64,000 nt of DNA from an uncultured Vicinamibacteraceae bacterium (GCA_964387935.1 CAYLZN010000001.1:18976-82975), one strand, 5' to 3'. Counted from the first letter of the stretch, positions 8,868-62,551 are shown. Numbers and translations: made by a program. The notes: generated from the sequence alone by a model not told the origin.

Positions 8868-8933
8868 CGCCTGGCCGCGCCGCCGCGCAGTGTAGAATGA
8901 AGAGTTCTCGTAGCCCCGATGAAGGAGTCCGTG

Positions 8934-11675: not shown

Positions 11676-12911
11676 CTAGCGGCGAATCTCGGCCCGTTCG
11701 ATGCGCCACCCCGCGGGCGTCGGTCGCAGTGTGAACTGCCAGCGCCGCGATTCCACCTGCGGATCCTGGCGTCCCACCTGCCGCACGTAGATGGCCCGGC
11801 CCTGGCAATCGGCGGTCGCGGAGTCGGTCCGCGTCACGATGTCGCAGGAGTCGAATTCGATGCGTTGCGACTTGAGATCCGAGAAGGCGCGCGCGAGCGC
11901 CGCCTGATCGACGCTCGGCCAGACCCGCCGCGCCGCCGACGCGTCGAGGGTGCCGTACGCCGCGCGATAGGCCGCCAGCGCGTCGCGCACCTCCGCCTGC
12001 GCATCCCGCGGAGCGGGAACCGGAGTCGGAGAGGCCGGCAGAGCAGCGGCGAGCGGCGGGGGCGCGGCCGCGGGTGGAACTGTCGCGGGCGGCACGATCG
12101 GCTGACTGGCGGGCGCGCCCTCTCGGGGGTTGCTCCGGTCCGGACCTGAAGCAGCCGCCGCCGAAGGCGCGGACGGAACGGGGAGTGCCGGCGGTCTGGT
12201 GTCAGGCGCAGCGGTGGGCGCGGCGTTCGGCAGCGGACGTGTCAATGGCGCTGACGAGGGGGGCGACTCCGCCACACCCACCGGCCCTGGCGCAACATCA
12301 GGAGGTGCAGGCATGGAAGGCGCAGGTGATCCCTCCCCAGGCGGCGCCTCCGCCCGTGGCCCACCCGGCATCGGTGCCCCACCACCGGAGGGGGACGTTG
12401 CGGATTGCCAGGTCAGAAATGCGGCTCCGACCAGGAGCACGAGGCTCGCGGCAACGGCCAGCACACGACCCACGCCGAGGCGACGGCCGGGCGCAGGCAC
12501 ATTCTCCCTCGCCTCGACGGCACCCTGATCCAGCAGCGTGGGCAGGGCTGGCACGACGTCGGACACAGGGGGTGCGGCGGTCGGCAAGGCGGGCGCCTGA
12601 GGCAACGCCTCCTCGTCCTCCTCCGGCGGCGGCCAGACGAGTTGGGACTCGGGACGGCTGGCCGTGGTGGGTGCGGGCGCCTTGTGCGTCCCGGGGCTGG
12701 GGCCGGGCACATAGCGGGGCGCGCCGACCGGCGGCGTTCGTGGGGCCCTGGAGCGAGGCCTCGACGGCGGGCTCGACTCGGTCGGCGCCCTCAGTTCGTA
12801 GACCTGGAGCGCCTCGAGATCTTCGGCCGAAGGCGGCCACGCGAGCGTAGGAGGCCCGGCCGCGCCGGGTCCGTCACCGTCACCCGACGAGCCGCCGACA
12901 CTGCGTTTCAC
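11676..12911 (-). CDS. Single-pass membrane protein: Pro/Ala-rich regions plus C-terminal NTF2/SnoaL-like domain
   Basis: 411-aa ORF with GTG start. One TM helix (VLAVAASLVLLVGAAFL). Long low-complexity Pro-rich tracts. C-terminal about 110 aa (AEVRDALAAYRAAYGTLDASAARRVWPS..WQFTLRPTPAGWRIERAEI) looks like a DUF4440/NTF2 fold. Confidence 0.6.
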   Translation of the reverse strand: MKRSVGGSSGDGDGPGAAGPPTLAWPPSAEDLEALQVYELRAPTESSPPSRPRSRAPRTPPVGAPRYVPGPSPGTHKAPAPTTASRPESQLVWPPPEEDEEALPQAPALPTAAPPVSDVVPALPTLLDQGAVEARENVPAPGRRLGVGRVLAVAASLVLLVGAAFLTWQSATSPSGGGAPMPGGPRAEAPPGEGSPAPSMPAPPDVAPGPVGVAESPPSSAPLTRPLPNAAPTAAPDTRPPALPVPSAPSAAAASGPDRSNPREGAPASQPIVPPATVPPAAAPPPLAAALPASPTPVPAPRDAQAEVRDALAAYRAAYGTLDASAARRVWPSVDQAALARAFSDLKSQRIEFDSCDIVTRTDSATADCQGRAIYVRQVGRQDPQVESRRWQFTLRPTPAGWRIERAEIRR

Positions 12912-13037
12912 CTCGAGTGCCGCCTGGGAATCATGGACCCTTCCCTGTCAGTATACAGGCGCCCTCGGCCCGGGCCTCTCCAGGCGACCATCGAAGATCG
13001 TGAACGTGTCCGAGCCCGGCGCACGCATAATGGCTGC

Positions 13038-15152
13038 GTGAGCAGACTCCTGCCCGGCGTCGTCCTGTGTGCGCTCGTCCTGCAGCCGGCGGCGAGTCCG
13101 GCGCAGCCTCCGCCCTCCGAGCAGCGACCCGCACAACCGCCCCGGTTCCGCGCAGGGACCGCGTTCGTGCGAGTGGACGTGTACCCGACGAAGGACGGCG
13201 TCATCGTTCCCGATCTCGCCGCGGGTGATTTCGAACTGTTCGAGGACGGGGTCCGCCAGACCATCGACACCGTCGAGCGCATCGTCATCTCGCAGCGCAC
13301 GACGGGCGAGACGCGACGCGAGCCCAACACGGTCGCGGAATCGCGCGCGATGGCCGCCGAGCCGAACGCCCGCGTGTTCGTGCTGTTCCTCGACACCTAT
13401 CACACGGGGATCGCCGGTTCGCACCGCATGCGGACCGCCATCACGCGCTTCCTCGAGCGCGTCCTCGGACCGGACGATCTCGTGGGCGTGATGACACCGG
13501 AGATGTCCGCCGCGGACGTCACGCTGGCCCGTCGTACCCAGGTGCTCGAGGGCTTCCTGCGGGACCAGTGGAACTGGGGTCGTCGAGATTCGATCACGAA
13601 CCGCGATCCGGAGGAAGTGGAGTACGAGAACTGCTACCCGGACTCGGATTCCGCCGTCAAGGGGGTGGCCCGCGAGATGATCGAGCGCCGCCGCGAGGGA
13701 CTCGCCCTGAATGCCGTGGAGGACCTCGTCCGCTGGCTCGAGGGCGTCCGCGAAGAACGCAAGGCGGTGTTGCTCATCAGCGAGGGGTGGCGCCTGCTCC
13801 GTCCGAACCAGACGCTCACCCGCGCGGACAGCCAGGGCGTGCCTCCGCCCCCCGCGATCGGGACGACGCCGGGGGGTCGGCTCACGACGGACCGCGGGCG
13901 CTCACCTGGCTACACGTCGAGAAACGACTGCGAAGCGGACCGCCAGCGGCTGGCCTACGCAGACGACTGGCAGCAGTTCATGGACCTGCTGGATCGCGCC
14001 AACCGAGCGAACGTGAGCTTCTACCCCGTGGACCCGCGCGGACTGCCGGTGTTCGACACCTCGATTGCCGGCGAGCCCGGCTCGCCCGACATGATCCCGC
14101 TCGAGCAGGACCAGGCACGGCTGCGGTCGCGACTCGACACCCTGCGCACGCTGGCGGACGCCACCGACGGCCAGGCGGTGATGGGCAGCAACGACGTCGA
14201 GCGCGGTCTCTCGCGCATTGTCTCGGACATGACCTCGTACTATCTGCTCGGTTACTCCTCGACCAACGCAGCGCTCGACGGCAAGTTCCGGTCGATCAAG
14301 GTGCGTGTATCGCGCCCCGGCGTCGAGGTGCGCGCGCGTCGCGGCTACCGGGCCGCGACGCCCAGCGAGGTCGAGGCCCTGACGACAGCCGCCGGCGGCG
14401 GGGCGGGGACCACCGCACCGACCGCGTTCGATGAGGCCATGGGCGTCCTTGCGAGCGCCAGCACGGCAGGGCGCTTGTCCACGCACCTTGCGTGGACGCC
14501 AACGCCCTTGGCGGGCTCGCCTGAAGCGGCGACGCTCTGGGCGACCATCGAACTCGATCCGACCGTCGCCAGGGGCGCAGACTGGACGAGCGGGTGGTCC
14601 GCGGACGTCACCGTCACCGGCGCGGACGGATCCCAGATCGTCCAGCGCCGCGAGAGCGTCACGTCAGGCGAGCGGCTCGTGCGGCTCGAGTTCGCGGGCG
14701 TGTCGCTGCCTTCCGGCGAACTCACCGCCAGGGTCAGACTGGCGCCCGCGGCGGGTGGACTCCCGTTCACCGACGTCGCACGCGTCACAGTACGCGCCGC
14801 GCCGCCACGGACCGGCGAGCCGCGGCTCGCCCGGCGCAATCAAACCACCGGCGCACGATGGGTGCCCACGGCCGATCGACGGTTCCGACGTGCCGATCGT
14901 CTGCGGGTCGAACTGACGCTGCCGCCAGGGACGAGCGTCAAGGCGGTCGAGATGCTGGACCAGCGGGGCTCGCCGTTTCAGATGCCGGTCTCTTTTACGC
15001 CAACCCCCGGCACGGGATCAGAGGGCCTGACGGGCGGCGTGGCCGACCTGTCCCTGGCTCCGTTCGCCCCAGGCGACTACGCGGTGCGCGTGACGCTTGA
15101 AGCCCCCGGGGGAGCGCGGCAGATGTTCGTGCCGTTTCGCGTCGTTCCGTAG
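13038..15152 (+). CDS. VWA domain protein of the acidobacterial VWFA-related family (TIGR03436-like), secreted
   Basis: GTG 13038 gives signal MSRLLPGVVLCALVLQPAASPAQ. The family-typical start FRAGTAFVRVDVYPTKDGVIVPDLAAGDFELFEDGVRQTI, and VFVLFLDTYH, ANVSFYPVDPRGL. The track ORF start at 12405 is a spurious extension. Confidence 0.8.
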   Translation: MSRLLPGVVLCALVLQPAASPAQPPPSEQRPAQPPRFRAGTAFVRVDVYPTKDGVIVPDLAAGDFELFEDGVRQTIDTVERIVISQRTTGETRREPNTVAESRAMAAEPNARVFVLFLDTYHTGIAGSHRMRTAITRFLERVLGPDDLVGVMTPEMSAADVTLARRTQVLEGFLRDQWNWGRRDSITNRDPEEVEYENCYPDSDSAVKGVAREMIERRREGLALNAVEDLVRWLEGVREERKAVLLISEGWRLLRPNQTLTRADSQGVPPPPAIGTTPGGRLTTDRGRSPGYTSRNDCEADRQRLAYADDWQQFMDLLDRANRANVSFYPVDPRGLPVFDTSIAGEPGSPDMIPLEQDQARLRSRLDTLRTLADATDGQAVMGSNDVERGLSRIVSDMTSYYLLGYSSTNAALDGKFRSIKVRVSRPGVEVRARRGYRAATPSEVEALTTAAGGGAGTTAPTAFDEAMGVLASASTAGRLSTHLAWTPTPLAGSPEAATLWATIELDPTVARGADWTSGWSADVTVTGADGSQIVQRRESVTSGERLVRLEFAGVSLPSGELTARVRLAPAAGGLPFTDVARVTVRAAPPRTGEPRLARRNQTTGARWVPTADRRFRRADRLRVELTLPPGTSVKAVEMLDQRGSPFQMPVSFTPTPGTGSEGLTGGVADLSLAPFAPGDYAVRVTLEAPGGARQMFVPFRVVP

Positions 15153-24507: not shown

Positions 24508-25992
24508 ATGGCTGACATCCGCCGCGACATGTCGCCTGAGGAGTTCCGCACCTGGGGCTACCGGCTGGTGGACTGGATCGCGAACTACCTGGACCACCCC
24601 GAGCGCTATCCCGTGCTGGCTCGCGTAAAGCCCGGTGAGATCGCCGCGCAATTGCGGGCGGGGTCGTCGCCAGCGCCGGCTGACCTCGGCGAGCTGATGC
24701 AGCAGTTCGACCGCATCCTCGTCCCGGGCCTCACGCACTGGAACCACCCGTCGTTTTTTGCCTACTTCTCCATCAGCGCCAGCGGGCCCGGCATCCTGGC
24801 AGACCTGCTGTCCTCAGCCCTCAACCAGCAGGCCATGCTGTGGCGTACCTCGCCCGCGGCCACCGAGCTCGAAGCCGTGTCGCTCGACTGGCTCCGCGAG
24901 ATGATCGGGCTGCCCGCGTCGTTCGAAGGCGTCATCTATGACACGGCGTCCGTGTCGAGCCTCCATGCGCTCGCAGCCGCCCGCGAGGTGGCAGTGCCCG
25001 GCGTGCGCCAGCAGGGCCTCGCGGGCCGCGACCTGCCGAGGTTCCGCGTCTACTGCTCCGAACACGCGCACTCGTCGATCGACAAGGGCATCATCCTGCT
25101 CGGCCTGGGCCACGACGCCCTGCGGAAGATCCCCGCCGACGCCGAGTTCCAGATGCGAGTCGATGCGCTCGAAGACGCCATCCGCGAGGATCGAGCCCGA
25201 GGCTGGCACCCGATGGCAGTGGTCGCCACCGTGGGGACGACGTCCACGACCAGCGTGGATCCGGTCACGGCCATCGCGCGGGTGTGCCAGCGCGAGCGAC
25301 TGTGGCTGCACGTCGATGCGGCGTACGCTGGCGTGGCCGCAATGGTCCCAGGCTGGGAGTGGACGCTGGCGGGCTGCGAGCACGCGGATTCCCTGGTCGT
25401 GAACCCGCACAAGTGGCTCTTCACCCCGTTCGACCTGAGCGCGTTCTACTGCCGCCGCATGGATGTGGTCCGGGCCGCGTTCTCGCTCGTGCCCGAGTAC
25501 CTGCGCACGACGGACCCCGCAGCGGTGAAGAATCTCATGGACACGGGCGTGCAGCTCGGCCGGCGGTTTCGCTCGCTGAAGCTCTGGATGATCCTGCGCT
25601 ACTTCGGCCGCGACGGCCTGGCCGCGATTCTCGCCGACCACATGCGCGTGGCGCGCCTCTTCGCGTCATGGGTCGACGCGCACCCGGACTTCGAGGTCCT
25701 CGCCCCGGTGCCGTTCAGCGTCGTCTGCTTCCGCGCGAAGCCGCGAGGCGCGGCGCAGGACGAGCGTGCCCTCGAGGCCTTGAACGCCGCGCTGCTCGAG
25801 GACGTGAACGCCTCGGGCGAGCTGTTCATCTCGCACACCAAGCTCGGTGACCGCTACGTGCTGCGGCTGGCCATCGGCAACGTGAGGACCACGGAGGCGC
25901 ACGTCGCGCGGGCGTGGGAGGTGATTCAGGACAGGCTCAGGGCTCAGGGCCCAGGACTCGGGGCTGAGGGCTCGGGGCTCAGGGCGACCTGA
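24508..25992 (+). CDS. PLP-dependent aromatic-L-amino-acid/group II decarboxylase
   Basis: 494 aa. GLTHWNHPSFFAYF, and SLVVNPHKWLFTPFD (PLP-Lys motif). TATAAT at 24492-24497 lies only 10 nt from the ATG. Confidence 0.85.
   Translation: MADIRRDMSPEEFRTWGYRLVDWIANYLDHPERYPVLARVKPGEIAAQLRAGSSPAPADLGELMQQFDRILVPGLTHWNHPSFFAYFSISASGPGILADLLSSALNQQAMLWRTSPAATELEAVSLDWLREMIGLPASFEGVIYDTASVSSLHALAAAREVAVPGVRQQGLAGRDLPRFRVYCSEHAHSSIDKGIILLGLGHDALRKIPADAEFQMRVDALEDAIREDRARGWHPMAVVATVGTTSTTSVDPVTAIARVCQRERLWLHVDAAYAGVAAMVPGWEWTLAGCEHADSLVVNPHKWLFTPFDLSAFYCRRMDVVRAAFSLVPEYLRTTDPAAVKNLMDTGVQLGRRFRSLKLWMILRYFGRDGLAAILADHMRVARLFASWVDAHPDFEVLAPVPFSVVCFRAKPRGAAQDERALEALNAALLEDVNASGELFISHTKLGDRYVLRLAIGNVRTTEAHVARAWEVIQDRLRAQGPGLGAEGSGLRAT
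25934..25982 (+). repeat. Heptanucleotide tandem array (GGCTCAG-type), 7 units
   Basis: GGCTCAG GGCTCAG GGCCCAG GACTCGG GGCTGAG GGCTCGG GGCTCAG. Spans the 3' ends of two convergent overlapping CDSs. Confidence 0.85.
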
Positions 25993-27361
25993 TCGCCCGC
26001 TTCCCCTGCGCGATCAGCGTCTCAGGTGACAGCACTTCGCCGGCGCGGATGACCGTCGTCACGCGTGCGAGCGCGGCGAGGTCCTTCGTCGGATCGCCAT
26101 CGACCAGGAAGAAGTTGGCGCTCCAGCCGTCAGCCCAGTGACGCGTGGTGCCCGGCACATCGACACCCGGTGCAGCGGTCGCCTCGAGCAGCCTCGGCAG
26201 CGGCACGTCCGCAGCCGCGAGCAGGGCCAGTTCTTCGTGGATCGCCAGGCCCGGCACGGGCCAGGGTTCCTGCGAGATCCCGCTGGCGAGCCCGAGCCTT
26301 CCACCCGCAGCCGCCCACGCCTTGACGAACGCCTGCTGGGCCCGCAGCGTCGCGAGCAGGCCCTTCGCGTCCGCGCCCCCCGGATTCGATCCCCTGCGCG
26401 AGGCCTCCTGCGCACGCTTCGGCAACAACGCGAGCCCGCGGTCTGGGTCGAACGGGAACGGTGAGTCCTTGCCTCCGGGGACGTCGCGCACGGTGGCGCG
26501 CAGCATCGGGGCGAGCGTAACGCGGCTCTTCGCTAGCTTCGACGCGGCCGCCGCCACGTCCGCCGCTCGCGCCTGCCGCCAGGAGTCGACGGGTTCCAGC
26601 GTCCTGACTGTTACCTTCGAGGGAAAGCTGCCGAGGCCTTCGACGAGGTCAGGTCCCCAGCCCACCACCTCGGCCACAGACGTCGTCCCCGTCACGACAG
26701 ACACGCTCAGGCGCCTCTTGCGGGCCGCGGCGATGACCGCACGCGCCACCGGCGCCGGCACGTCTCCGCTGATGCGGATGCGGTCGTAACCCGCGTCCGC
26801 GAGCCGCCGCACGGCGGCCTCTGCCCCGCCGGCCTCGCGAACGACGGTGGGAGGCACGTATCCTGAGAGGTCGAGGGAACGTGGTGCCGTCGTCGGATCG
26901 CTGACGATGACTGGCGCGGCGAGCGACAACGTCGGCGACAAGACCTCACCCGAAGCGACGCGCTTCTGCTGATCGAACGACCACGGCGCCCTGGCGTCGG
27001 TCACCACGTAGTGCATCACACCGTGGGCCAGGCCGAGTGCGCTGATGAAATCCGCGTCGGTCTGACGCCCGGGGGACACGCCGATCGCCAGGTCCGCGAG
27101 GCCGGGCACGGCCGTCCTGCCGGCCGCGTCGATGACTCGGGCCTCCGTCGGGATATCGGCCGCTTTCCCGGCAACGACCCGGCCGCGGACCACGAGCAGC
27201 GTCTCGACCGCGCGGCCGCGACCGGTCAACGGGTCGAGGACGGTTACGTTGCGCACGACGAGCGCACCTCCGCGGTCCGCCGCGGGCGGCGAAGACGACT
27301 GGCCGGCGAGCCACGCCGTTCCCGCAAGCACGCCCAGGCCGGCCATCCAGATCCGCAACAT
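25979..27361 (-). CDS. Amidohydrolase-fold protein lacking the HxH metal motif, secreted
   Basis: ATG at 27361 (MLRIWMAGLGVLAGTAWLAG). VVRNVTVLDP..VIDAAGRTAVPGLADLAIGV sits where family members carry PGLIDxHxH. C-terminal FFLVDGDPTKDLAALARVTTVIRAGEV is typical. Confidence 0.7.
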   Translation of the reverse strand: MLRIWMAGLGVLAGTAWLAGQSSSPPAADRGGALVVRNVTVLDPLTGRGRAVETLLVVRGRVVAGKAADIPTEARVIDAAGRTAVPGLADLAIGVSPGRQTDADFISALGLAHGVMHYVVTDARAPWSFDQQKRVASGEVLSPTLSLAAPVIVSDPTTAPRSLDLSGYVPPTVVREAGGAEAAVRRLADAGYDRIRISGDVPAPVARAVIAAARKRRLSVSVVTGTTSVAEVVGWGPDLVEGLGSFPSKVTVRTLEPVDSWRQARAADVAAAASKLAKSRVTLAPMLRATVRDVPGGKDSPFPFDPDRGLALLPKRAQEASRRGSNPGGADAKGLLATLRAQQAFVKAWAAAGGRLGLASGISQEPWPVPGLAIHEELALLAAADVPLPRLLEATAAPGVDVPGTTRHWADGWSANFFLVDGDPTKDLAALARVTTVIRAGEVLSPETLIAQGKRAIRSP

Positions 27362-27437
27362 GACCTGTAGCCTACCGCAGCGTCGGCCGAAACTGTACTG
27401 AGCGCTCCGCGACGTCGCGGGGCCGTGGAGAACACAC

Positions 27438-28001
27438 GTGACGACGCGCAGTGCGAGAACGATCGTGGTGCTGGGCGCTTTGCTGCTCCCGAGCTCGGCC
27501 GGCGCCGAGGGGCTCCTGGCTGCCTTCATCGGGCAGAACTTTGGCGGAAAGGCCGAGGAGCACACCGTCGTGTACGGGGGCGTGCTGGGGAGCGTCCGGA
27601 AGGGACTCGGCTTCGAAGTCGACTTCGGTTACACCCCGGACTTCTTCAAGACTGAAGAGCTGACCGGCTCGAAGACGAGCGTGACGACGGTCATGGGCAA
27701 CCTGGTCATCGGGGGCGCGGCGTCTCGCGGGGTGGGCGCCTACGCCAGCGGCGGCGCGGGCCTCATCCGCGCGAACGCAGACGGCCCCGGCGAGCTCCTC
27801 GACAACCTGACGAGCAACGACTTCGGCATCAACGTCGGCGGCGGGCTCAACATGGTGTTCGGCACGTCGGTGGGCATCCGCGCCGACATCCGCTACTTCC
27901 GCAGCCTCCAGGGCAGCGACGACGGGGCGATTCCGATCCCGTCCGATCTTGGCGATTTCGACTTCTGGCGGGGGACGATCGGCCTCGTGTTCGTGTGGTA
28001 G
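27438..28001 (+). CDS. Small outer-membrane beta-barrel protein (OmpA-like/porin family)
   Basis: 187 aa, GTG start, signal ..LLLPSSAGAEG. Alternating beta-strand pattern. C-terminal ..FWRGTIGLVFVW. Confidence 0.75.
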   Translation: MTTRSARTIVVLGALLLPSSAGAEGLLAAFIGQNFGGKAEEHTVVYGGVLGSVRKGLGFEVDFGYTPDFFKTEELTGSKTSVTTVMGNLVIGGAASRGVGAYASGGAGLIRANADGPGELLDNLTSNDFGINVGGGLNMVFGTSVGIRADIRYFRSLQGSDDGAIPIPSDLGDFDFWRGTIGLVFVW

Positions 28002-52559: not shown

Positions 52560-53666
52560 ATGCCCCTCGATCGCCGAGCGTTCCTCGGAGCGGTTCCCGT
52601 GGTCAGCGGCGCGGCGCTGCTCGCTCCGCAGGCCCGCGCCGCCGGATCCTCATCCCGTATGAAGCTCACGTTCCGACCGTACACGCTGGAACTGAAGCAC
52701 GTCTTCACGCTCGCCACCAGCTCGCGCACGACGACGCCCGTGGTGCTGACGGAGATTGCCTACGAGGGCAAGGTCGGCTACGGGGAGGCCTCCATGCCGC
52801 CGTACCTCGGCGAGTCGCACGAATCGGCCACGGCGTTTCTGTCGAAGGTCGATCTCGCGCGGTTCGACGACCCGTTCCGCATCGAGGACATCCTGCGCTA
52901 CGTGGACGAGATCGCGCCCGGCAATCCTGCCGCCAAGGCGTCGGTGGACATCGCGCTCCACGACCTCGTCGGCAAGCTGATCGGACAGCCCTGGTACAGG
53001 GTGTGGGGCCTGGACCCGGGCAAGACGCCCTCCACGTCGTTCACGATCGGCATCGACACGCCCGACGTCGTGCGCGAGAAGACGCGTGAGGCGGCGGCGT
53101 TCAAGATCCTCAAGGTCAAGCTCGGGCGCGACACCGACAAGGCGATCATCGAAGCCATCAGGTCCGTGACGAACGTCCCGCTGTGCGCCGATGTGAACCA
53201 GGGCTGGAAGGACCGGGCCCAGGCGCTCGACATGCTCGGCTGGCTGAAGGAGAAGGGCGTCATGTTCGTCGAGCAGCCGATGCCGAAGGAACTGGCCGCC
53301 GACAATGCCTGGCTCACCGAGCGCAGCCCCGTGCCAATCGTCGGCGACGAGGCGGTGCAGCGGCTTGCGGACGTGAAGAAGGCGAGCAGCATCTACTCCG
53401 GCATCAACGTGAAGCTGATGAAGTCCACCGGGATGCGGGAGGCGCAGGCCATGATCACGACGGCCAAGGCCCTGGGCATGAAGGTGCTGCTCGGATGCAT
53501 GACGGAGACGTCGTGCGGCATCTCGGCGGCGGCCCAGCTCTCGCCGATGGTGGACTGGGCCGACCTCGACGGCGCGTTGCTGATCCGCAACGACCCGTTC
53601 AAGGGCGCCCACGTCATCGACGGCAAGGTGACCCTGACCGACGCACCTGGCATCGGTCTCAGGTGA
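52560..53666 (+). CDS. Dipeptide (L-Ala-D/L-Glu-type) epimerase, enolase superfamily, with Tat signal peptide
   Basis: ATG 52560 after GAGG. MPLDRRAFLGAVPVVSGAALLAPQARAAG. KILKVKLG, VNQGW, IVGDE, INVKLMK, GCMTES-like CMTETS. Confidence 0.8.
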   Translation: MPLDRRAFLGAVPVVSGAALLAPQARAAGSSSRMKLTFRPYTLELKHVFTLATSSRTTTPVVLTEIAYEGKVGYGEASMPPYLGESHESATAFLSKVDLARFDDPFRIEDILRYVDEIAPGNPAAKASVDIALHDLVGKLIGQPWYRVWGLDPGKTPSTSFTIGIDTPDVVREKTREAAAFKILKVKLGRDTDKAIIEAIRSVTNVPLCADVNQGWKDRAQALDMLGWLKEKGVMFVEQPMPKELAADNAWLTERSPVPIVGDEAVQRLADVKKASSIYSGINVKLMKSTGMREAQAMITTAKALGMKVLLGCMTETSCGISAAAQLSPMVDWADLDGALLIRNDPFKGAHVIDGKVTLTDAPGIGLR

Positions 53667-55813
53667 GCGGGCCCACCCACGGCGCTCCACCGTCTGCTCC
53701 GATCGTGGCGGAAGCGGGCAAGCGGCCACACCTCGAGCGGGCGTTGGGCCGGTGGGACCTGACGGCCATCGGCATCAACCAGGTCATCGGCGGCGCCATC
53801 TTCCTGATGCCGTCGCAGGTGGCCGGGCTCCTCGGCTCGTGGAGCCTGCCGGCCTTCGTGCTCGCCGGGCTGGCGTCCCTGCTCGTGGCCTGGTGCTTTG
53901 CGGAGGTCTCGACCCGGTTTGTCGGCACCGGTGGCGCCTACCTCTACACACGCGCGGCCTTTGGGCGCTTCATCGCCTTCGAGGTCGGCTGGATGCAGTG
54001 GTTCACGCGCGTGGCCAGTCACGCGTCGGTGGCGAACGGAGCTGCACTGGCCCTGGCGTACTTCGTGCCGGCCGTCGGGCGGGGACTGGGACGGGCCGCC
54101 TTCATCACCGCGCTCATGCTCCTGCTGGGGTGGATCAACGTTCGCGGCATCCGGCAGAGCGCCCGCCTCGTGAACGCCCTGACGATGGCCAAGCTGGTAC
54201 CGCTCGGGCTGTTCATCGCGCTCGGGCTGCCGTGGCTCGGGCGTCCACCACTCGCGGGGTTCCCCGCCGTCACGGCCGAGCAGGCCTCGACGGCGGCGCT
54301 GCTGCTGATCTTCGTCTTCGGGGGCTTCGACGTGGTCTCGGTCCCGGCGGGCGAGACACAGGATCCCCGGCGGCACATGCCGTTTGCCTTCACGGTGACG
54401 ATTGCCGTCGTCGCCACGGTCATGACGCTGTGCCAGGCGGTGTGCCTGGCCGCCCTGCCAGACCTGGCGCTGTCGAAGACCCCTCTGGCCGACGCGGCGA
54501 TCATCGTGATGGGCGCCGCCGGCGCGACCCTGGTCGCGGCCGGCGCCATCGTGTCCATGCTGGGCAACAACGCGGGTCAGGTGCTCACGGGGTCGCGAAT
54601 GCTGTACGGGGTGGCCGAGAACGGGGATCTGCCCCGCTGGTTTGGGCGCGTGCACCCGCGCCATCACACGCCGGACGTGGCGGTCTGGTTCACGACGATC
54701 GTGGCGCTGGTGCTGGCGTTGACGGGATCGTTCGTCGCGCTGGCGGCGGTGAGCGCGGTGGCTCGGCTGGTGACCTACGTGGGCACCTGCGCGGCGACCT
54801 GGCGGCTGCGGAGTGCTCGCTTCGAGGGCCTGGTCGCTCCCGCGCTCTGGCGGACCCCTGGAGGGCCCCTGGTGCCCGTGCTGGCGATCGGGGTGTCGCT
54901 GATCATTCTGGCGGCCGCCAGCCGCCAGCAGTTGCTGTCGGGGGCGGCCGCGCTCACGGCTGGAGCGCTGCTGTTCCTCAGCGCGCAGGCCCCGTCGCAC
55001 TACCAGGCCGACGTCCAGCGCTGGCGGGCCGCTCGCGACGCATCGCTGCGCGCGGAGGACGGGTGGCCCACTCTGGTCGGGCTCTTCTGGCTGCAGCAGG
55101 GCCCCCAGACCATCGGGTCCTCTCCCGACCGCACATTCGTCCTGCCTGCCAGCGCTCCCGCTCACCTGGGCACGTTCACGCTCGATCACGAGGCGGTCTC
55201 CTTCCGCCCGGCGCCAGGCGTGCCCGTGGTCCGCGAGGCGCAGCCATTCACGGGGGGGCTCGTCCGCGACGACCGCACGAAGCCGCCGGACGTCCTGCGC
55301 GTCGGCAGCTACTCGCTCCTCGTCATCCACCGCACCGGACGCCTCGGCGTCCGGGTCCGCGATACCGCCTCGGAGGGCCGACGGCAGTTCCACGGCGAGC
55401 GATGGTTCCCGATCGACGAACGCTGGCGCCTCACGGCACGTTGGGTGCCCCACGTGCCGCCGCGCGAGGCGCGCATTCCCAACGTCGTCGGCGGCGAGTT
55501 CATCTGGTCGAATCCCGGGTACGCGTCGTTCACCGTGGACGGCCGGGACGTGCGGCTGGAGGCGCTGTTCGAGGGTGACAACCGCGAGGAGCTCTTCTTC
55601 ATCTTCAAGGATCTGACGAGCGGGAGCGACACGTACCCGGCCGGCCGTTTCCTGTACGCCGCGCTGCCTCGAGGCGGCAATGTCGTGCTCGACTTCAACA
55701 GGGCGCACAACCCGCCATGCGCCTTCACGCCGTTTGCCACGTGTCCGCTGCCGCCCCCGCAGAATCACGTGAAGGTGCGGATCGCCGCCGGAGCCCTGAA
55801 CTACGAACACTGA
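53663..55813 (+). CDS. APC-family amino-acid permease fused to a C-terminal DUF1684 domain
   Basis: GTG overlaps the epimerase stop (GTGA). Permease: LTAIGINQVIGGAIFLMPS..GGAYLYTRAAFG with 12 TM. C-terminal about 270 aa: WRAARDASLRAEDGWPTLVGLFWLQQGPQTIGS...DLTSGSDTYPAGRFLY...LDFNRAHNPPCAFTPFATCPLPPPQN. Confidence 0.8.
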   Translation: MSGPTHGAPPSAPIVAEAGKRPHLERALGRWDLTAIGINQVIGGAIFLMPSQVAGLLGSWSLPAFVLAGLASLLVAWCFAEVSTRFVGTGGAYLYTRAAFGRFIAFEVGWMQWFTRVASHASVANGAALALAYFVPAVGRGLGRAAFITALMLLLGWINVRGIRQSARLVNALTMAKLVPLGLFIALGLPWLGRPPLAGFPAVTAEQASTAALLLIFVFGGFDVVSVPAGETQDPRRHMPFAFTVTIAVVATVMTLCQAVCLAALPDLALSKTPLADAAIIVMGAAGATLVAAGAIVSMLGNNAGQVLTGSRMLYGVAENGDLPRWFGRVHPRHHTPDVAVWFTTIVALVLALTGSFVALAAVSAVARLVTYVGTCAATWRLRSARFEGLVAPALWRTPGGPLVPVLAIGVSLIILAAASRQQLLSGAAALTAGALLFLSAQAPSHYQADVQRWRAARDASLRAEDGWPTLVGLFWLQQGPQTIGSSPDRTFVLPASAPAHLGTFTLDHEAVSFRPAPGVPVVREAQPFTGGLVRDDRTKPPDVLRVGSYSLLVIHRTGRLGVRVRDTASEGRRQFHGERWFPIDERWRLTARWVPHVPPREARIPNVVGGEFIWSNPGYASFTVDGRDVRLEALFEGDNREELFFIFKDLTSGSDTYPAGRFLYAALPRGGNVVLDFNRAHNPPCAFTPFATCPLPPPQNHVKVRIAAGALNYEH

Positions 55814-55852: not shown

Positions 55853-58800
55853 ATGCGCCGCCTCCTGACACTGTCCGTCGCACTGCTCGCCGCGTTGCTC
55901 GTGCTGACGTTCGTGCTCCACACGACGCCAGCACGCGGATTCGCGCGGGCGCGTGCGGAGGCCTGGCTGCGCGAACACGCCCGCCTGTCGGCGCACATCG
56001 GATCGCTGGACTACTCCCTGCGTCGCCTCCACGTCGAGGTCCGGGACGTGACCCTGGCCCCGGTGGACCGGCCAGAGGCGGTGTTTCTCCGGGCGGGCCG
56101 CATCTCGGTCGATATCGAGGGCTTTCCGTTCCTTGCTCCGTGGCGGCTGCGCGCGGCCGGGGCCGATCACCTTCACCTCTCCCTGCGCCGGGATGCGCAG
56201 GGCCGCCTCAACCTGCCGGAGTCGCGCGGCGGCGGAGACCCTCCGAGTGTCGCGTGGGTCGTGCCCGACGCCCTCGACGTGCGACATCTCACCTTCACGT
56301 ACGAGGACGAGCGGGCGAGCCCGGCAGGGGGCGGCCCGATCGTCGAGGTCCCGGACGCGTCCTGGCACGCCCGCAGACGCGAACACGGGCTCGAGGGCAT
56401 CTTCGCGGTGGAGGGCTTCGCCGCACTCAGGTTCGCCGACCGGTCACTGAGCGCGACAGGACTCCGGAGCCTGCTCCGTTGGGACGGGCGGTCGGTCCTG
56501 GCCCGCGACGTGACGGCGCTCCTCTGGCCGGCTGCGCCATCGGTGGCCCAGGGCCCCGTCCCGACGGCGCCCGCGCGCCTCGTGCCGTCCACCGGGACGA
56601 GCCCGCTGACCGCCTTGACAGGTACCGTGACGATCGCCGGGGTGTTCGAGTCGCCGACGATCACGGCGGAGGGACGGGGCGACCTCACGCTCGACGCGTT
56701 CGAACGCTGGCTGTCGCTCCCATTCGATCTCGACAGCCAGGGCACGATTCACTGGGCTGGCACGGTCACCGGTGACGTCGCCTCACCGACCGTGGACGCG
56801 ACAGTGAGCGGGTCGGCCCTTTCGGCGCGAGGCGAGGACGGCCTCGCGCTGACGTCGGGGCTGCGGTTCGAAGACGGGACCCTCACCGTTCGCGGCACGC
56901 GCATCACACGTGGCGCCTCGACGATCGAGACGACGGCGACGATTCCCACCGGGGCCGCGCCTGGCCCCGCTCGCGTCGAGGGCCGCTGGCAGGCGGTCCC
57001 GCTCGCCACCGTGCTCCACCACGTCGGCCGGCCACTTCCTGGTGCGAGGGCGTGGCTCGACGGCAACATCGACGTGACGTGGCAAGGGTCCGACCTTCGT
57101 TCCGTGACGGGAGCGGCGACGAACCGCGTGCGGTCGACGGGCACCGTCGCCGAAGCGTCGCTGAACGGACAGGCGTCCTGGCGGGCCTCGGGAGGTCGGT
57201 GGACGCTGCGGCACGAGCACACGCTCGGGACGCTGCTGGTGGACGGCTCGGCCTCCGGCCCGCTCCCCGCGACGGCGGCCCACGACATCCCGCTCAACGG
57301 GCCTTTCAACGTCTCGAGTCCCGATCTGGCCGCCACGCTCGTGGACCTGGCTCACCTGGGAATCCTGGCGCCGGCGGCGGCCGCGCGTGCGCAGGCCGGC
57401 AGCATGACGTTTCAGGGACACCTGGCCGGCACGCTTGGGCGGCCTGCGGTGGCGGGACCGGTCAGCGGGCAGGGCCTTCGGACCACGCTGACCCCGCGAC
57501 CGGTTGCGCTCGAGGCGAACATCAGGCTCGACACGACGGCGCTGGACGTGACGGGCGGCTCGCTGACGCAGGGGCCCAACGAGGTCACGCTGCAGGGTCG
57601 CCTCGCGTTCCGGGCCGGGACGTTGACCGGAACCGGAACCCTCGACATGTCCGACTTCGACCCGCTCTGGACGGCGTCGGACCTCCCGCGGCGCTGGCTC
57701 CCTCGGGGCCGGCTCACCGCGCGCGCGTCCGTCTCTGGCACGCTCCGAAGCCCGAACGCGGAAGCGGAGTTCTCGGGCTCGATGGGGCTCGGTGCCCTCG
57801 CCCCGTCGCCCGTCGGTGGACGCGTCCGACTCGTCAGAGAACGCCTCTTCCTCGACGACGTGGGTATCGATACGCCGGGCGGACGGGTCGATGCCGATGG
57901 CCAGGTCGACCTGGCGGATTCCTCGGGCCGATTCCTCGCGCGTGCCACGATCGACCTCGACGCAGCCGAGCGTCTCGGTCCTCTCGTGTCGCCGGACCCC
58001 TGGCCGCTCAGCGGCGCCTGGGCCGGCCGGGCCACCGCCGAGGGGCGCCTCGACGATCTCGACGGGGCCGCCATCGAGGCACTCTTCGAACGCGTAGATG
58101 GTGCGGTATCCGGACTGCCCGTCGCCCTCGACGAGCCGGCACACCTGGCCCGGCAGGGCGACCACGTGGCCGTCACTCGCCTCGTGCTGCGCTCCAACGG
58201 GACGGTGCTCACGCTCGACGGCGCCCTTGGCCCCGACGAGCCGGGGATCACAATCGGTGCCGACGTGCGTCTCGAGGACATCGCGCCATGGACCTCCGCG
58301 GTCGAGGCCACAGCGAGGCCCGCCCTCGCAGGCGCGCTTCGCCTGGAAGCACAGGTGGGCGGTCGCCTGCGCGCACCGCGCATCGAGGCCACGCTGACCG
58401 GCCGCGAGCTTTCGCTCGGAGCGGACGACTGGCCACCCCTGACGGGCGCCTCTCTCGATGCCCATGTCCAGGATGGACTCATCTCGGTGCGCCAGATGAC
58501 CGGCACGTGGCAGGGGGCGTCCCTCGCCGCAACCGCCACGGTGCCCATCCGTCTGCTGGAACGGTGGCTGCCCCGCTCGTGGCACGGCGCGCTGCAGACG
58601 GTCTCCGGCCCGGCACGATTCGGCGGAGCGCTCACGGGTCTGACGCCGGCAGCCCTGCAGTCCTTCGTGAGCCCGGAGACACTGGCCACGATCGGCGGCA
58701 GGGCGTCGATTCGCGTCTCGGCGGAAGCCGACGAGCTGAGTCTGGACGAACTGCGTGGCGAGGTCACCTTCGACTCCGCCGAGTTCGTCGTCGCACAAGT

Positions 58801-61800
58801 GCCAGTCAAGCAGAGCGTGCCCACGCGCCTCGTGCTCGCGGACAACCGGCTGCGCATCGACACGCTGCAGTGGGAGGGGCCCGGGACGACGATCACCGGC
58901 TTCGGGGGGCTGGCGTGGCCGCAGGGGGAGGCCAGGCTCGACGTGGCGATCGATGCGGGGGTCGATCTGCGCATGGCTTCCGTGTTCGTCCGGCCCGCAG
59001 CCACGGGCGGCCGTGCCGACGTCTCCGTGTCGTTTGCCGGCCCGGTGCGCGAGCCCCTCATCGAGGGTCGGGTGCTGGTCACCGACGGGGAATTCCGAAA
59101 CCGGGACCCGCGGCTGGCGGTCACCGACGTCTCGGGCACGCTGCTCCTGATTGGCGATCGGCTGACGCTCGAGGCCGTGACGGGACAGGTGAACGGCGGG
59201 GCGCTCAGTGTCCAGGGCACCGCTCGCCTGGATGGCTGGTCGCTGGCCACGCTCGATCTGGCCGTCGCGGCGAAGGACGCCGCCGTCGAGTTCCCTCCAG
59301 GACTTCGAACCGAGGTCGTCGCGGACCTGCGCCTGACCAAATCGATGGCGAAGGAAGCGCCAGTCCTCAAGGGCACGGTGACGGCGCTGCGCGGCAGCTA
59401 CCGCGAGCAGATGAACCTCACGGCGCAGCTGCTCGGTAGAAATAGGGGCCTCGGCTCGGCTGGAGACGCAGAGACGTCGGGAATCCTGGGCCGCATACGG
59501 CTCGACCTGGGCCTCGCCACGCTCGAGGACATCAGCGCCGAGAACAACTACGGGCGCGTCGAAGCCGGCGCCGCGTTGCGCGTCGGCGGCACGGTGGACA
59601 GTCCGACGCTCGCGGGCCGCATCTCGCTTCGACAGGGGGGCCTGGTGTTCCTTGGCGGAAACGTCTATCGGCTCGAGCGAGGCGCCATCGATTTCCGCGA
59701 GGGCCCACGCATCGAGCCCATCCTCGACGTGACCGCGCGGACGCAGGTCGGCCAATACAGCATCCAGCTGCAGGTCGATGGCCCGCCCACCGCCGTGCGT
59801 GCGGAACTCACGTCGGATCCCCCAGCCGACCAGAGCGATATCGTCTCGTTGCTGATGACGGGGCGGACGGTTGCCGATGGCGGACTCTCCACGCACGTGC
59901 TGAGCAGCCAGGTGCTCGGGTACCTGTCGGGCGATCTCCTGAACGCCGCGGGACGCGTCGTCGGGCTCGATTCCGTGCGCCTCGATCGGGGTGTGTCACT
60001 CGACGAGCTGCGGTTCGATCCCACGATCATCGCCAGCGAGACCGAGCCGGAGTCGCGGCTGACGATCTCCAAGAACCTGACCCGCGACGTGGACGTGGTG
60101 CTGTCGCAGAACCTGGAGACCGGCAGACTGACGTGGATTGCCACCTGGCGACCCCGTCGCACGGTGGCGCTCCGCGTGCTTTCGCTGGACAACAAGGACC
60201 GCATCTACGAGTTTCGCCAGGAACTCGCACTGGGAGACGCTCCGGCAGCAACCGGCCCCACCGAGAGGACCACCCAACCCCGCGTCGCCGGCGTGGCGAT
60301 CACGGGAGCGGACGCCGACCAGGCCGCGCTGCTGTCACGCCTGCAACTGAAAACGGGCAAGCGCTTCGACTTCTACCGGTGGCAAGACGACCGCGAACGC
60401 CTGCTGGCCTACTTCCAGGAGACGAATCGCTACGAGGCGAACGTCGCCTCCAGGCGCCGTGAAGTGTCGGGGGAAGGCGCGCTCCCTGGCGTCGAACTGC
60501 GCTACGAGGTACGCCCCGGCCTCCGGGGGCACATCGCCGTTGAAGGCCTCACGCCCAGCGAGGCGCTGTTGCGCGAGATCCGGGCCGAGTGGACGCGGGC
60601 GGTGTTCGACGACTTCCTGGTCGAGGACGTGACCCGCATCGTCCGGCGAGCCCTGACCCGTGATGGCTTCCTGCGGGCCGACGTCACGACGTCGATAGAA
60701 CAGCCTCCGCCGGGCACGCCCGGCGAGGGCACCAAGGTCCTTCGCGTCCGGGCCGTGCCGGGGCAGGCGACGGCCACGAGGCGAATCGAGTGGATGGGAC
60801 ACCAGGCCGTGGATGCCGCGCGGCTGGATGCCGCCGTCGAGCGGGCCGGGATCGCAGATGACATCTGGCAGGAGCCGGCACTGCTGGAGCCAGTCGTGCG
60901 GGACCTCTTCGTCGCCGAGGGCTACCCGGCGCCCGTCATCTCCGCGGGCCTGCCGCAGTTCGACGATGGTGCCGCCAGGTTGCCGGTGCGCATCGTCGAG
61001 GGCCCACAGGCCCGCCTGGGCGCCCTGACCTTCCGGGGCACGAGGTCGCTCGAACCCGACCTGCTGATGGCCCAGGCCGGCCTCGAAGGCGGGCGGCCCC
61101 TGACGCCCGCGGCCCTCGATCGGGCCCAGCGGAGCATCGAGACCGCGTACCTCCAGCGGGGTTTCGTGGCATCGCGCGTCGGCGTGGAGGCCACGGCGAC
61201 TCCAGACGGCACCGTCGACGTCGTCATCGCGGTGGACGAGGGTCCGCAGAACGTGCTGCAGAGCGTGGAGATCGTCGGGGCGCGCCACACGCACCCCGGA
61301 CTGGTGCGGCGGGCTCTCGGGCTCGAAGCCGATGCGCCGCTCGATCCCGACGCGCTGTTCGAGGCGCGTCGGCGATTGTACGAGACGGGCGCGTTCCGAC
61401 AGGTGGACGTCGAGACGATCCCCGTGTCCGACGCCCGGGTCGTGCCCGAGACTGGCGCCCGGGAGCAGCCGGTGACTGCGCGGGTGACCGTGGACGAGTG
61501 GCCGTTGTGGCGGGTGCGGTACGGCCTGCAGGTGAACGACCTGTTCGATCCCGTGGACGGCGGCCGTGACGTCGGGCCGGGGTTCTCCGCCAACCTCGAG
61601 CGCGCCAACCTGCTCGGCCGCGCGGCCACGGTCGGCGCGTCGTTTCGGTATGAGCTCGAGCGGCAGGCCCTGCGCGGGTACCTGTCCGCGCCTCGCTTCT
61701 TCGACCTCCCGATCAGTTCGACCCTGTTCGCGCAGCAGGAGTGGGCCGAGCCCCGCGGGACGACAGATGTCCAGGCCGACATCACCACCCTGTCCTTCGA

Positions 61801-62503
61801 ACAGCGATACCGCCTGCAGCGGCGCACACAAATCAACTATGGCGCGTTCTACCGGCGGACCATGACGTCGTTCGTCGACGAGTTCCTGGGCCCCGTGGAA
61901 GTGCTCGTCCGTTACGCCGGTCTGCTGTCGGCGGTCTCGTTCGACCGGCGGGACAATCCGTTCGACACGCGCCGCGGGTGGTTCCACGCCTCGTCGCTCA
62001 AGTACTCGCCGGGCCAGTTCGGATCGGACCTGAAGTTCGTACGCTGGCTCACCCAGCAGTCGTTCTACAAGGAAGTGGGCCCCGGCCTCGTTCTGGCCTG
62101 GAACGGGCTGCTCGGCCTGGCGGACGGCTTCGGCCAGGACATCGTCCCTGACGAGCGGTTCTACGCAGGTGGTGGCTCCAGCGTGCGGGGCTACAAGGAC
62201 GACAGCCTCGGCCCGCGCGACATCTTCGAGGTCAACATCGGCGGCGAAGCCCTCGTCGTGCTCAACCACGAGCTCCGCTTCCCGATCTGGAATCGCTTCA
62301 GCGGCGTGGCGTTCCTCGACGCGGGAAACGCGTTTGCCGAGCCTTCACGGATCGTGCTGGGCGAGCTCGAGGTGGGCACGGGCCTGGGTCTGCGGGTCGG
62401 CACGCCGATCGGCCTGCTGCGCTTCGACTTCGGGGTGCCGGTTTCGCGAGGTGGGGGCCTGGGCGCAGGGCGTCTGCACTTCTCGTTCGGACAAGTGTTC
62501 TGA
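55853..62503 (+). CDS. Giant envelope protein: TamB-like (signal-anchor + beta-rich body + DUF490) fused in frame to POTRA repeats and an Omp85 (TamA/BamA-like) beta-barrel
   Basis: Uninterrupted 2216-aa ORF. N-terminal anchor LLTLSVALLAALLVLTFVL. DUF490-like region at about nt 59690-60235. POTRA-like region at about 60280-61480. Barrel at about 61490-62500 with FYAGGGSSVRGY and terminal LHFSFGQVF. Confidence 0.85.
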   Translation: MRRLLTLSVALLAALLVLTFVLHTTPARGFARARAEAWLREHARLSAHIGSLDYSLRRLHVEVRDVTLAPVDRPEAVFLRAGRISVDIEGFPFLAPWRLRAAGADHLHLSLRRDAQGRLNLPESRGGGDPPSVAWVVPDALDVRHLTFTYEDERASPAGGGPIVEVPDASWHARRREHGLEGIFAVEGFAALRFADRSLSATGLRSLLRWDGRSVLARDVTALLWPAAPSVAQGPVPTAPARLVPSTGTSPLTALTGTVTIAGVFESPTITAEGRGDLTLDAFERWLSLPFDLDSQGTIHWAGTVTGDVASPTVDATVSGSALSARGEDGLALTSGLRFEDGTLTVRGTRITRGASTIETTATIPTGAAPGPARVEGRWQAVPLATVLHHVGRPLPGARAWLDGNIDVTWQGSDLRSVTGAATNRVRSTGTVAEASLNGQASWRASGGRWTLRHEHTLGTLLVDGSASGPLPATAAHDIPLNGPFNVSSPDLAATLVDLAHLGILAPAAAARAQAGSMTFQGHLAGTLGRPAVAGPVSGQGLRTTLTPRPVALEANIRLDTTALDVTGGSLTQGPNEVTLQGRLAFRAGTLTGTGTLDMSDFDPLWTASDLPRRWLPRGRLTARASVSGTLRSPNAEAEFSGSMGLGALAPSPVGGRVRLVRERLFLDDVGIDTPGGRVDADGQVDLADSSGRFLARATIDLDAAERLGPLVSPDPWPLSGAWAGRATAEGRLDDLDGAAIEALFERVDGAVSGLPVALDEPAHLARQGDHVAVTRLVLRSNGTVLTLDGALGPDEPGITIGADVRLEDIAPWTSAVEATARPALAGALRLEAQVGGRLRAPRIEATLTGRELSLGADDWPPLTGASLDAHVQDGLISVRQMTGTWQGASLAATATVPIRLLERWLPRSWHGALQTVSGPARFGGALTGLTPAALQSFVSPETLATIGGRASIRVSAEADELSLDELRGEVTFDSAEFVVAQVPVKQSVPTRLVLADNRLRIDTLQWEGPGTTITGFGGLAWPQGEARLDVAIDAGVDLRMASVFVRPAATGGRADVSVSFAGPVREPLIEGRVLVTDGEFRNRDPRLAVTDVSGTLLLIGDRLTLEAVTGQVNGGALSVQGTARLDGWSLATLDLAVAAKDAAVEFPPGLRTEVVADLRLTKSMAKEAPVLKGTVTALRGSYREQMNLTAQLLGRNRGLGSAGDAETSGILGRIRLDLGLATLEDISAENNYGRVEAGAALRVGGTVDSPTLAGRISLRQGGLVFLGGNVYRLERGAIDFREGPRIEPILDVTARTQVGQYSIQLQVDGPPTAVRAELTSDPPADQSDIVSLLMTGRTVADGGLSTHVLSSQVLGYLSGDLLNAAGRVVGLDSVRLDRGVSLDELRFDPTIIASETEPESRLTISKNLTRDVDVVLSQNLETGRLTWIATWRPRRTVALRVLSLDNKDRIYEFRQELALGDAPAATGPTERTTQPRVAGVAITGADADQAALLSRLQLKTGKRFDFYRWQDDRERLLAYFQETNRYEANVASRRREVSGEGALPGVELRYEVRPGLRGHIAVEGLTPSEALLREIRAEWTRAVFDDFLVEDVTRIVRRALTRDGFLRADVTTSIEQPPPGTPGEGTKVLRVRAVPGQATATRRIEWMGHQAVDAARLDAAVERAGIADDIWQEPALLEPVVRDLFVAEGYPAPVISAGLPQFDDGAARLPVRIVEGPQARLGALTFRGTRSLEPDLLMAQAGLEGGRPLTPAALDRAQRSIETAYLQRGFVASRVGVEATATPDGTVDVVIAVDEGPQNVLQSVEIVGARHTHPGLVRRALGLEADAPLDPDALFEARRRLYETGAFRQVDVETIPVSDARVVPETGAREQPVTARVTVDEWPLWRVRYGLQVNDLFDPVDGGRDVGPGFSANLERANLLGRAATVGASFRYELERQALRGYLSAPRFFDLPISSTLFAQQEWAEPRGTTDVQADITTLSFEQRYRLQRRTQINYGAFYRRTMTSFVDEFLGPVEVLVRYAGLLSAVSFDRRDNPFDTRRGWFHASSLKYSPGQFGSDLKFVRWLTQQSFYKEVGPGLVLAWNGLLGLADGFGQDIVPDERFYAGGGSSVRGYKDDSLGPRDIFEVNIGGEALVVLNHELRFPIWNRFSGVAFLDAGNAFAEPSRIVLGELEVGTGLGLRVGTPIGLLRFDFGVPVSRGGGLGAGRLHFSFGQVF

Positions 62504-62514
62504 GAGCCAATTCA

Positions 62515-62549
62515 GGCTCAAGGCTCAGGGCTCAGGGCTCGAGGCTCAG
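62515..62549 (+). repeat. Heptanucleotide tandem array (GGCTCAG-type), 5 units
   Basis: GGCTCAA GGCTCAG GGCTCAG GGCTCGA GGCTCAG. Fills the 48-bp gap between two convergent stops. Confidence 0.85.
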
Positions 62550-62551
62550 GG

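Follow-up and report, generated by a model that had tools for sequence, protein, structure and literature searches.

TamB and its Omp85 partner are separate proteins in the closest described systems. In TAM, the proteobacterial translocation and assembly module, tamA precedes tamB, and an inner-membrane-anchored TamB (1259 aa in E. coli) works with TamA, which has three POTRA domains. TamA β1 is paired in E. coli with the final strand of TamB, and the preceding TamB strands are held in a hybrid barrel (PMC12800296), described in a 2026 preprint as a stable and functional state (PMC13119328). In the BAM-TAM system of Borrelia burgdorferi (BAM, β-barrel assembly machinery), TamB (BB0794) works with a five-POTRA BamA (BB0795) encoded immediately after it, the two proteins being held non-covalently (PMC13382580, PMC4494059). 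The C-terminal strands of this TamB were modelled as completing the barrel at β1, and POTRA1 as lying close to POTRA5 (PMC13382580). For Acidobacteria, a further BamA-like gene was reported besides the canonical BamA, sharing an operon with tamB in the order BamA then TamB (Heinz et al. 2015, PMC4494059); in spirochaetes the order is tamB then bamA, with no BamA other than this one (PMC4494059). We describe here a gene on a 64,000-nt stretch of DNA (the window) from an uncultured Vicinamibacteraceae bacterium (CAYLZN010000001.1:18976–82975), in which a TamB and an Omp85 protein are encoded as one polypeptide.

Translation of the plus strand gave one open reading frame (ORF) of 2216 aa, starting with ATG and with its sole stop codon at the end; the continuous 6.65-kb frame proposed in the initial annotation was thus found. 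Along the chain, a signal-anchor helix was followed by a β-taco, DUF490 and a linker, and beyond the linker lay five POTRA domains and then an Omp85 barrel of 16 strands (Table 1). PF04357, PF07244 and PF01103 all scored far above their gathering scores, both halves were complete and joined in frame as had been claimed, and the motifs quoted in the initial annotation all lay where it had placed them. Since the local DNA is ~70% GC and long spurious ORFs are common (e.g. a 997-aa antisense ORF), ORF length by itself was no proof, but the domain E-values together with conservation in a family (below) excluded a chance origin of the architecture. GC content at third codon positions was 0.80–0.89 in each 100-codon window across the junction, and the codon-position GC pattern was uniform. 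Kyte-Doolittle hydropathy peaked at residues 1–27 and exceeded 1.6 elsewhere only in one marginal window at residue 492 (1.63). With no strong hydrophobic segment inside the chain, and none around residues 1440–1500, there was no second signal peptide at the join, and the Omp85 half had no cleavable signal peptide of its own. Promoter and terminator scans flanking the gene gave no signal above shuffled expectation.

Like TAM, the chain combined a predicted inner-membrane-anchored TamB with β-taco and DUF490 (matching 9xdc_B of E. coli) and an Omp85 partner made up of POTRA domains and a barrel of 16 strands, for which TamA was the closest solved barrel by sequence; the terminal TamB strand that in E. 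coli pairs with TamA β1 (PMC12800296, PMC13119328) was also kept. It differed from TAM in being one polypeptide with TamB first, in having five POTRA domains, in its longer TamB part (~1460 aa), in the missing signal peptide of the Omp85 half and in falling below the equivalog models of TAM proteins. The last TamB strand (1450–1460) was internal and not a free C-terminus, 755 further residues following it. With the Borrelia system the fusion shared a five-POTRA Omp85 and the order tamB then Omp85, but it was covalent; Borrelia BamA is the sole housekeeping Omp85, acting with BamB and BamD, and such a role of the fusion is putative.

Two AlphaFold2 models were made from alignments of fused homologues, one of residues 1–1100 (mean predicted local distance difference test score, pLDDT, 85) and one of 1018–2216 (mean pLDDT 81). 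Hydropathy and the model agreed with the signal-anchor assigned earlier to residues 1–25, and the repetitive β-rich TamB/AsmA-like stretch, put at ~1250 aa in the initial annotation, was seen as a β-taco of ~1300 aa. Weak DUF748/YhdP-type Pfam matches covered residues 3–186. DFREGPRIEP (residues 1280–1289, nt 59,690–59,719) marked the start of the DUF490-type block. In the C-terminal subdomain, amphipathic helices (1327–1394) were followed by five terminal strands (1402–1460); the last, RIYEFRQELAL, was β-signal-like and lay within RIYEFRQELALG (residues 1450–1461, nt 60,200–60,235).

A profile combining the TamB part of the fused protein with 26 unfused TamBs matched E. coli TamB 9xdc_B at E = 2.8e-57, in segments 4–671 and 621–1255 of 1259. 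The alignment therefore spanned residues 4–1255 of E. coli TamB, indicating that the TamB module was full length. The profile was needed: phmmer with the TamB C-terminal region alone matched no solved structure. In Foldseek against the PDB, the N-terminal model returned large β-sheet proteins at low template modelling (TM) scores (ApoB100, LptD), the TamB chain ranking 49th (E 0.22). Since Foldseek was uninformative for such a long curved sheet, the TamB assignment was carried by the profile-sequence match to 9xdc_B.

In the Omp85 half, the model contained five β-α-α-β-β units, each a POTRA domain, and PF07244 matched three stretches (2.6e-26, 92.5 bits). The barrel was matched by PF01103 at residues 1919–2216 (1.4e-39, 137 bits) and carried the loop-6 motif VRGY (2110–2114) and FLDAGNAF (2154–2161); the C-terminus LHFSFGQVF (2208–2216) was an aromatic β-signal ending in F. 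By Foldseek, this half aligned over ~830 columns with full-length E. coli BamA (E 2e-38) and over ~590 columns with TamA (TM 0.6–0.7). By sequence, the nearest solved barrels were TamA (1e-18, 2e-15), slightly ahead of BamA (7e-15), and the best-scoring NCBIfam model for the fused protein was TIGR03303 (BamA). TamA has three POTRA domains and is encoded upstream of TamB; here five were found, and the Omp85 half lay downstream and fused. Having five POTRA domains (as BamA) and not three (as TamA), the protein is more safely named TamB-Omp85 than TamB-TamA. In its number of POTRA domains the Omp85 half was thus like BamA, in its barrel like TamA, and TamB-Omp85 was the best name for the whole.

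Besides an identical protein, a word-indexed protein search found two relatives of 70% identity and another 33 fused proteins at ~25–38%, mostly 2000–2500 aa long (one of 1479 aa). The full-length fused homologues numbered 36, at ~25–71% identity. All had TamB, POTRA and Omp85; the named sources of the relatives were metagenome-assembled genomes (MAGs) of Vicinamibacterales or Acidobacteria. Residues 1018–2216 were also compared by phmmer with 1.84 billion representatives clustered at 50% identity, and the best 150 matches were considered. All 150 matched the whole or the greater part of residues 1018–2216, were in register with the query and crossed the junction wherever the sequence was long enough; they were mostly 2000–2390 aa, and the 150th still had E = 1e-144. 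The fused family comprised at least 150 clusters at 50% identity. In GTDB (one genome per species, scanned with one POTRA1 motif from nine sequences, by which cultured species were possibly missed), at least 41 species loci were found, and the tblastn match crossed the junction in all 41; with a single motif as probe, 41 species is a lower bound. Labels of these 41 loci were Acidobacteriota, Vicinamibacterales, Vicinamibacteraceae or "gp6", with no others. At most loci the TamB C-terminal profile and the barrel profile both fell on one stop-free ORF of 2100–2400 aa. The initial annotation had left it to a survey of related genomes whether orthologues were fused or split; they were fused across the Vicinamibacterales/Acidobacteriota loci. 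These results confirmed that the TamB-Omp85 join was a genuine gene fusion, conserved across an order of soil Acidobacteria.

The exceptions were mainly nanopore-derived MAGs. In several long-read MFD MAGs (L034, L036, L039–L043), multiple frame changes were scattered over the fused gene, which in L036 fell into as many as eight pieces, and in these assemblies gene callers would split the protein. Such loci are what could suggest an artefact of assembly, sequencing or gene calling at this locus, or a recent inactivating fusion (a pseudogene). The alignment, however, ran on through the scattered frame changes, which therefore resembled indel errors (probably in homopolymers), and about 30 independent assemblies held a single intact ORF of 2100–2400 aa. 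Coding statistics were uniform over the junction, and the family-defining motifs of both halves were kept over 25–79% identity, which excluded a missed stop or frameshift. On this conservation across genomes and clusters both the artefact and the pseudogene readings were rejected, their likelihood being next to nil.

Outside the main group, P0049 (1479 aa, labelled Planctomycetota), P0065 and P0067 were also fused TamB-POTRA-Omp85 proteins. Further labels in this group were Candidatus Polarisedimenticolia and Dehalococcoidia, and the contigs were 4–10 kb long. Independent fusion events or mis-binning of the contigs could account for them.

The junction had a consensus of a last TamB strand YxFRHxhxFGG, a variable linker and a first POTRA strand xRVxxVxxxG. 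The linker, placed in the initial annotation at 15 aa (DAPAATGPTERTTQP, residues 1462–1476), was found in that position, with bounds widened here by one residue to 16 aa. Across the family its sequence varied and was rich in P, A, S, T and R, and its length had a median of 16 (range 10–28) in 200 divergent sequences. The 26 unfused TamBs ended 0–3 residues past the strand aligned with RIYEFRQELAL, indicating that the fusion point was the natural C-terminus of TamB. In two distant fused homologues (P0029 and P0032), ~190 extra residues separated the end of TamB from the first POTRA in the alignment. This insert looks like two additional POTRA-like units, which would mean that the number of POTRA domains differs within the fused family.

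The four closest stand-alone Omp85 relatives that were looked up (24–30% identity to the Omp85 half) all adjoined tamB (Table 1). In L044 and L047, both pairs on metagenome contigs, the Omp85 proteins were 704–711 aa long, and that of L044 retained a typical signal peptide of its own. The initial annotation had called the gene order inverted; this held against the proteobacterial tamA-tamB order, but unfused pairs with tamB first exist (L044, L047), and spirochaetes provide a precedent (PMC4494059). These unfused pairs and the published tamB-linked Omp85 of Acidobacteria resembled the fusion as the closest stand-alone relatives of its Omp85 half; they differed in being separate genes, with a signal peptide kept (L044) and, in the published cases, with BamA before TamB (PMC4494059). 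The simplest history suggested by the gene arrangements would be an operon of tamB then omp85, with adjoining or overlapping genes, in which the TamB stop codon and the segment for the Omp85 signal peptide were lost. The unfused pairs (L044, L047, P0069, P0073) are likely the precursor state of the fusion.

By analogy with these systems, the vertically conserved fusion probably yields a TAM-like machine in one chain, reaching from the inner to the outer membrane. Its N-terminal helix would stay in the inner membrane as an anchor and the remainder would be exported via Sec. The β-taco of ~1300 residues would cross the periplasm as a hydrophobic, lipid-shielding groove, and from the usual β-signal-like strand at the end of DUF490 the chain goes on via the flexible linker of ~16 residues to POTRA1. 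Insertion of the barrel into the outer membrane would presumably fall to a separate BAM complex that reads the C-terminal FSFGQVF. Phospholipids might then be moved from the inner to the outer membrane, and/or the insertion of particular barrel proteins assisted, as by E. coli TamAB and Borrelia TamB-BamA. The terminal TamB strands may dock at the β1 seam of their own barrel, and the covalent link would set a 1:1 stoichiometry and make the bridge permanent. The periplasmic tetratricopeptide repeat (TPR) protein encoded downstream could be a third component.

From the topology of the barrel, the last TamB strand should end on the periplasmic side beside β1. A stable and functional hybrid barrel, as reported for E. 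coli (PMC13119328), is consistent with a permanent covalent link. Covariation was analysed by mean-field direct coupling analysis on 203 fused sequences (effective number 184), a reduced run of weak power, as seen in the control, where neighbouring barrel strands scored 0.59 and non-neighbours 0.43 ± 0.07. Among barrel strands, the last TamB strand scored highest with β1 (0.63) and β2 (0.62), and the pairs 1458–1894, 1457–1916, 1447–1911 and 1444–1913 ranked 30–59 of 131,328. This docking hint is suggestive only.

Several points weighed against the bridging reading. The docking signal was just 1.5–1.9 standard deviations over a best-of-barrel null. A linker of 16 residues reaches at most ~55 Å and yet must connect the periplasmic end of the last TamB strand with POTRA1, which along the chain is the most distant POTRA from the barrel; only a POTRA arm curling back into a ring, as modelled for Borrelia (PMC13382580), would make this workable. 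The fused protein stayed below the cut-offs of the NCBIfam equivalogs for TamB (NF047952, 61.6 bits vs 825), TamA (NF047950, 97.1 vs 625) and BamA (TIGR03303, 171.6 vs 297.15). BamA matches found with P0074 as query came from Planctomycetota, Phycisphaerae and Verrucomicrobia, and none was on a fusion-bearing contig, because the sole canonical BamA query was planctomycetal. The function proposed for the family would, moreover, be one carried over from distant proteobacterial and spirochaetal systems.

Another reading makes the fusion the only Omp85 of the cell, an essential BamA covalently tethered to the inner membrane via TamB, i.e. a covalent version of the Borrelia BAM-TAM. We consider this rather unlikely. 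The five POTRA domains, the top NCBIfam model and the top Foldseek matches (full-length BamA) all fit BamA, but the BamA equivalog cut-off was far from reached and the closest solved barrels by sequence were TamA. The spirochaete BamA encoded downstream of tamB is the only one (PMC4494059), whereas Acidobacteria were reported with a canonical BamA besides the tamB-linked copy (PMC4494059), and the nearest stand-alone relatives of the fusion were such tamB-linked Omp85 genes. Canonical bamA among the relatives (P0074/L046) lay in a bamA-skp-lpxD-lpxC/fabZ-lpxA cluster; the fused locus lacked the bamA-skp-lpxD context, its neighbours being a permease/DUF1684 ORF and the TPR gene. No second Omp85 could be shown in any fusion-bearing genome in one search with the planctomycetal BamA query; against this, a barrel that itself needs insertion normally requires a pre-existing insertase. 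Quite unlikely, too, is that the fusion would be the essential insertase of Vicinamibacterales lacking a separate BamA, in which lipid delivery and barrel insertion were coupled at fixed trans-envelope sites and the TPR protein replaced a BamD-type lipoprotein.

Very improbable is that the fusion is only a translational precursor, with the linker cut in the periplasm and TamB and Omp85 then associating non-covalently. Delivery as part of TamB would stand in for the lost Omp85 signal peptide, and the linker was flexible, exposed and variable; it had, however, no conserved cleavage motif, conservation being limited to FGG before it and RV after it, and no protease gene was conserved beside the fused gene. 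That the linker stayed short (median 16) over 200 divergent sequences is more in line with a constraint on spacing than with a spacer that could be discarded.

Only one precedent was found in which a single chain is held in both membranes, the long MlaD of Veillonella parvula, which likewise has an inner-membrane N-terminal helix and an outer-membrane C-terminal barrel in one lipid bridge (PMC10665443). Its folds are unrelated (an MCE hexamer and a 10-strand barrel, against an AsmA-like taco and an Omp85 barrel), and the proposed direction of lipid transport is opposite. In chloroplasts, as described in one preprint (bioRxiv 10.1101/2021.04.25.441383), the inner-envelope TamB homologue TIC236 and the outer-envelope Omp85 homologue TOC75 form a similar pair, but as separate proteins of a protein-import translocon in a eukaryotic organelle.

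No description of a TamB-Omp85 fusion was found in the literature searched, including a paper on TAM evolution, TAM reviews and the 2026 structure papers. Such fusions are unmentioned in Heinz et al. 2015 (PMC4494059), and in a 2026 survey of bacterial DUF490 proteins the length classes reach only 1650–1700 aa. Database names for the fused proteins were generic and automatic ("TamB domain-containing protein", "BamA/TamA family" and, at JGI, a double name of BamA/TamB), and no dedicated family model reached its cut-off. The initial annotation was aware of no characterisation of this architecture; no publication was found, but the fusion was common in metagenomes (at least 150 clusters) and both domains were labelled automatically. 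In nature it is common, annotation pipelines see it, and in the literature searched it is apparently uncharacterised.

The partnership of TamB with Omp85 is already known; the fusion adds a geometric restraint, a permanent bridge, a puzzle of biogenesis and a candidate TPR partner. The 2026 cryo-EM papers debate the way in which TamB and its Omp85 partner come together, and whether the hybrid barrel is the working state. A covalent chain kept for long in an abundant soil order would mean that the complex can be permanent and 1:1, and that TamB does not require a free C-terminus. The end of TamB lying within a linker of ~16 residues of the start of POTRA1 would be a hard restraint on docking models with a five-POTRA partner. 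An inner-membrane-anchored chain of 2216 residues would also have to place a C-terminal barrel in the outer membrane. For structural biologists, the fusion offers a self-assembling, stoichiometric, single-chain TAM. If the host has no other Omp85, it would represent a new organisation of the essential BAM core.

Table 1. Features of the fused gene, its convergent neighbour and unfused tamB-omp85 loci (positions in the window unless a locus is named)
Feature	Residues	Position (nt)	Strand	Basis or remark
Whole fused gene	1–2216	55853..62503	+	2216 codons + stop; identical protein P0001 in public collection
Signal-anchor/transmembrane helix	2–24	55856..55924	+	Hydropathy; AlphaFold helix 2–22; N-terminus conserved in family consensus
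Transmembrane helix	2–22			AlphaFold2
Second helix	25–43			AlphaFold2
β-taco	~45–1322	55985..59818	+	~70 consecutive strands; profile alignment to E. coli TamB
Unbroken β-strand run (β-taco)	to ~1322			AlphaFold2
Pfam TamB/DUF490 (PF04357)	1110–1425	59180..60127	+	110.7 bits vs cut-off 22.4, E = 1.3e-31
TamB C-terminal subdomain	1327–1460	59831..60232	+	AlphaFold secondary structure; C-termini of aligned unfused TamBs
Linker GDAPAATGPTERTTQP	1461–1476	60233..60280	+	Mostly low pLDDT (model residues 447–456 < 50)
Five POTRA domains	~1477–1554, 1558–1635, 1642–1715, 1721–1795, 1799–1882	60281..61498	+	Model, Pfam, Foldseek
16-strand Omp85 barrel	~1886–2216	61508..62500	+	PF01103, model strands, motifs
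Secreted TPR protein, candidate partner	202 aa	62552..63160	-	TPR Pfam; type-I signal peptide, no lipobox cysteine
Unfused, P0069				omp85, then 209-aa gene, then tamB
Unfused, P0073				tamB 2.7 kb upstream of omp85
Unfused, P0075/L047		L047 1322-7115		tamB then omp85, 7-nt gap
Unfused, P0076/L044		L044 2346-8136		tamB then omp85, 14-nt overlap

As had been claimed, no tamA-like gene was adjacent to the fused gene: a permease-bearing ORF lay upstream and a convergent TPR gene downstream. No second Omp85 or TamB paralogue was found within the 64-kb window, nor any envelope-biogenesis neighbours of the fused gene, the genes around it being for peptidases, transporters and histidine biosynthesis. 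Of 43 related loci (L001–L043), 34 had a TPR orthologue at this position and in this orientation, mostly at 37–46% identity, and it was kept downstream of the fusion although the upstream genes differed among loci; of the nine loci that lack it, at least three stop at a contig edge. Searches with the TPR protein gave generic and designed TPR proteins only, and no sign of BamD. From its sequence and position, this predicted periplasmic protein may be a third component, possibly with a BamD-like role. In L044, a gene of 201 aa close to the unfused pair was considered as a TPR counterpart and rejected, being unrelated to the TPR protein.

Five tandem AGGCTCA heptamers (62,514–62,551) filled the 48-nt spacer between the convergent stop codons of the fused and TPR genes, and no terminator-like hairpin was found in this spacer. 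In L001 the spacer was 9 nt and the repeat was not conserved. Elsewhere in the window, ORFs at 12,405–15,149 (+, 915 aa) and 25,979–27,565 (-, 528 aa) had gene-like codon statistics and no Pfam match at E ≤ 1e-5.

The permease noted upstream in the initial annotation was present, and the same ORF (53,183–55,813, +, 876 stop-free codons) carried both the amino-acid permease (residues 188–578) and DUF1684 (735–870). In L001, the relative at 70% identity, the permease and DUF1684 genes were separate (7677–9017 and 9089–9961). The genome may thus hold another gene fusion here, or the joined frame may be the product of a lost stop codon.

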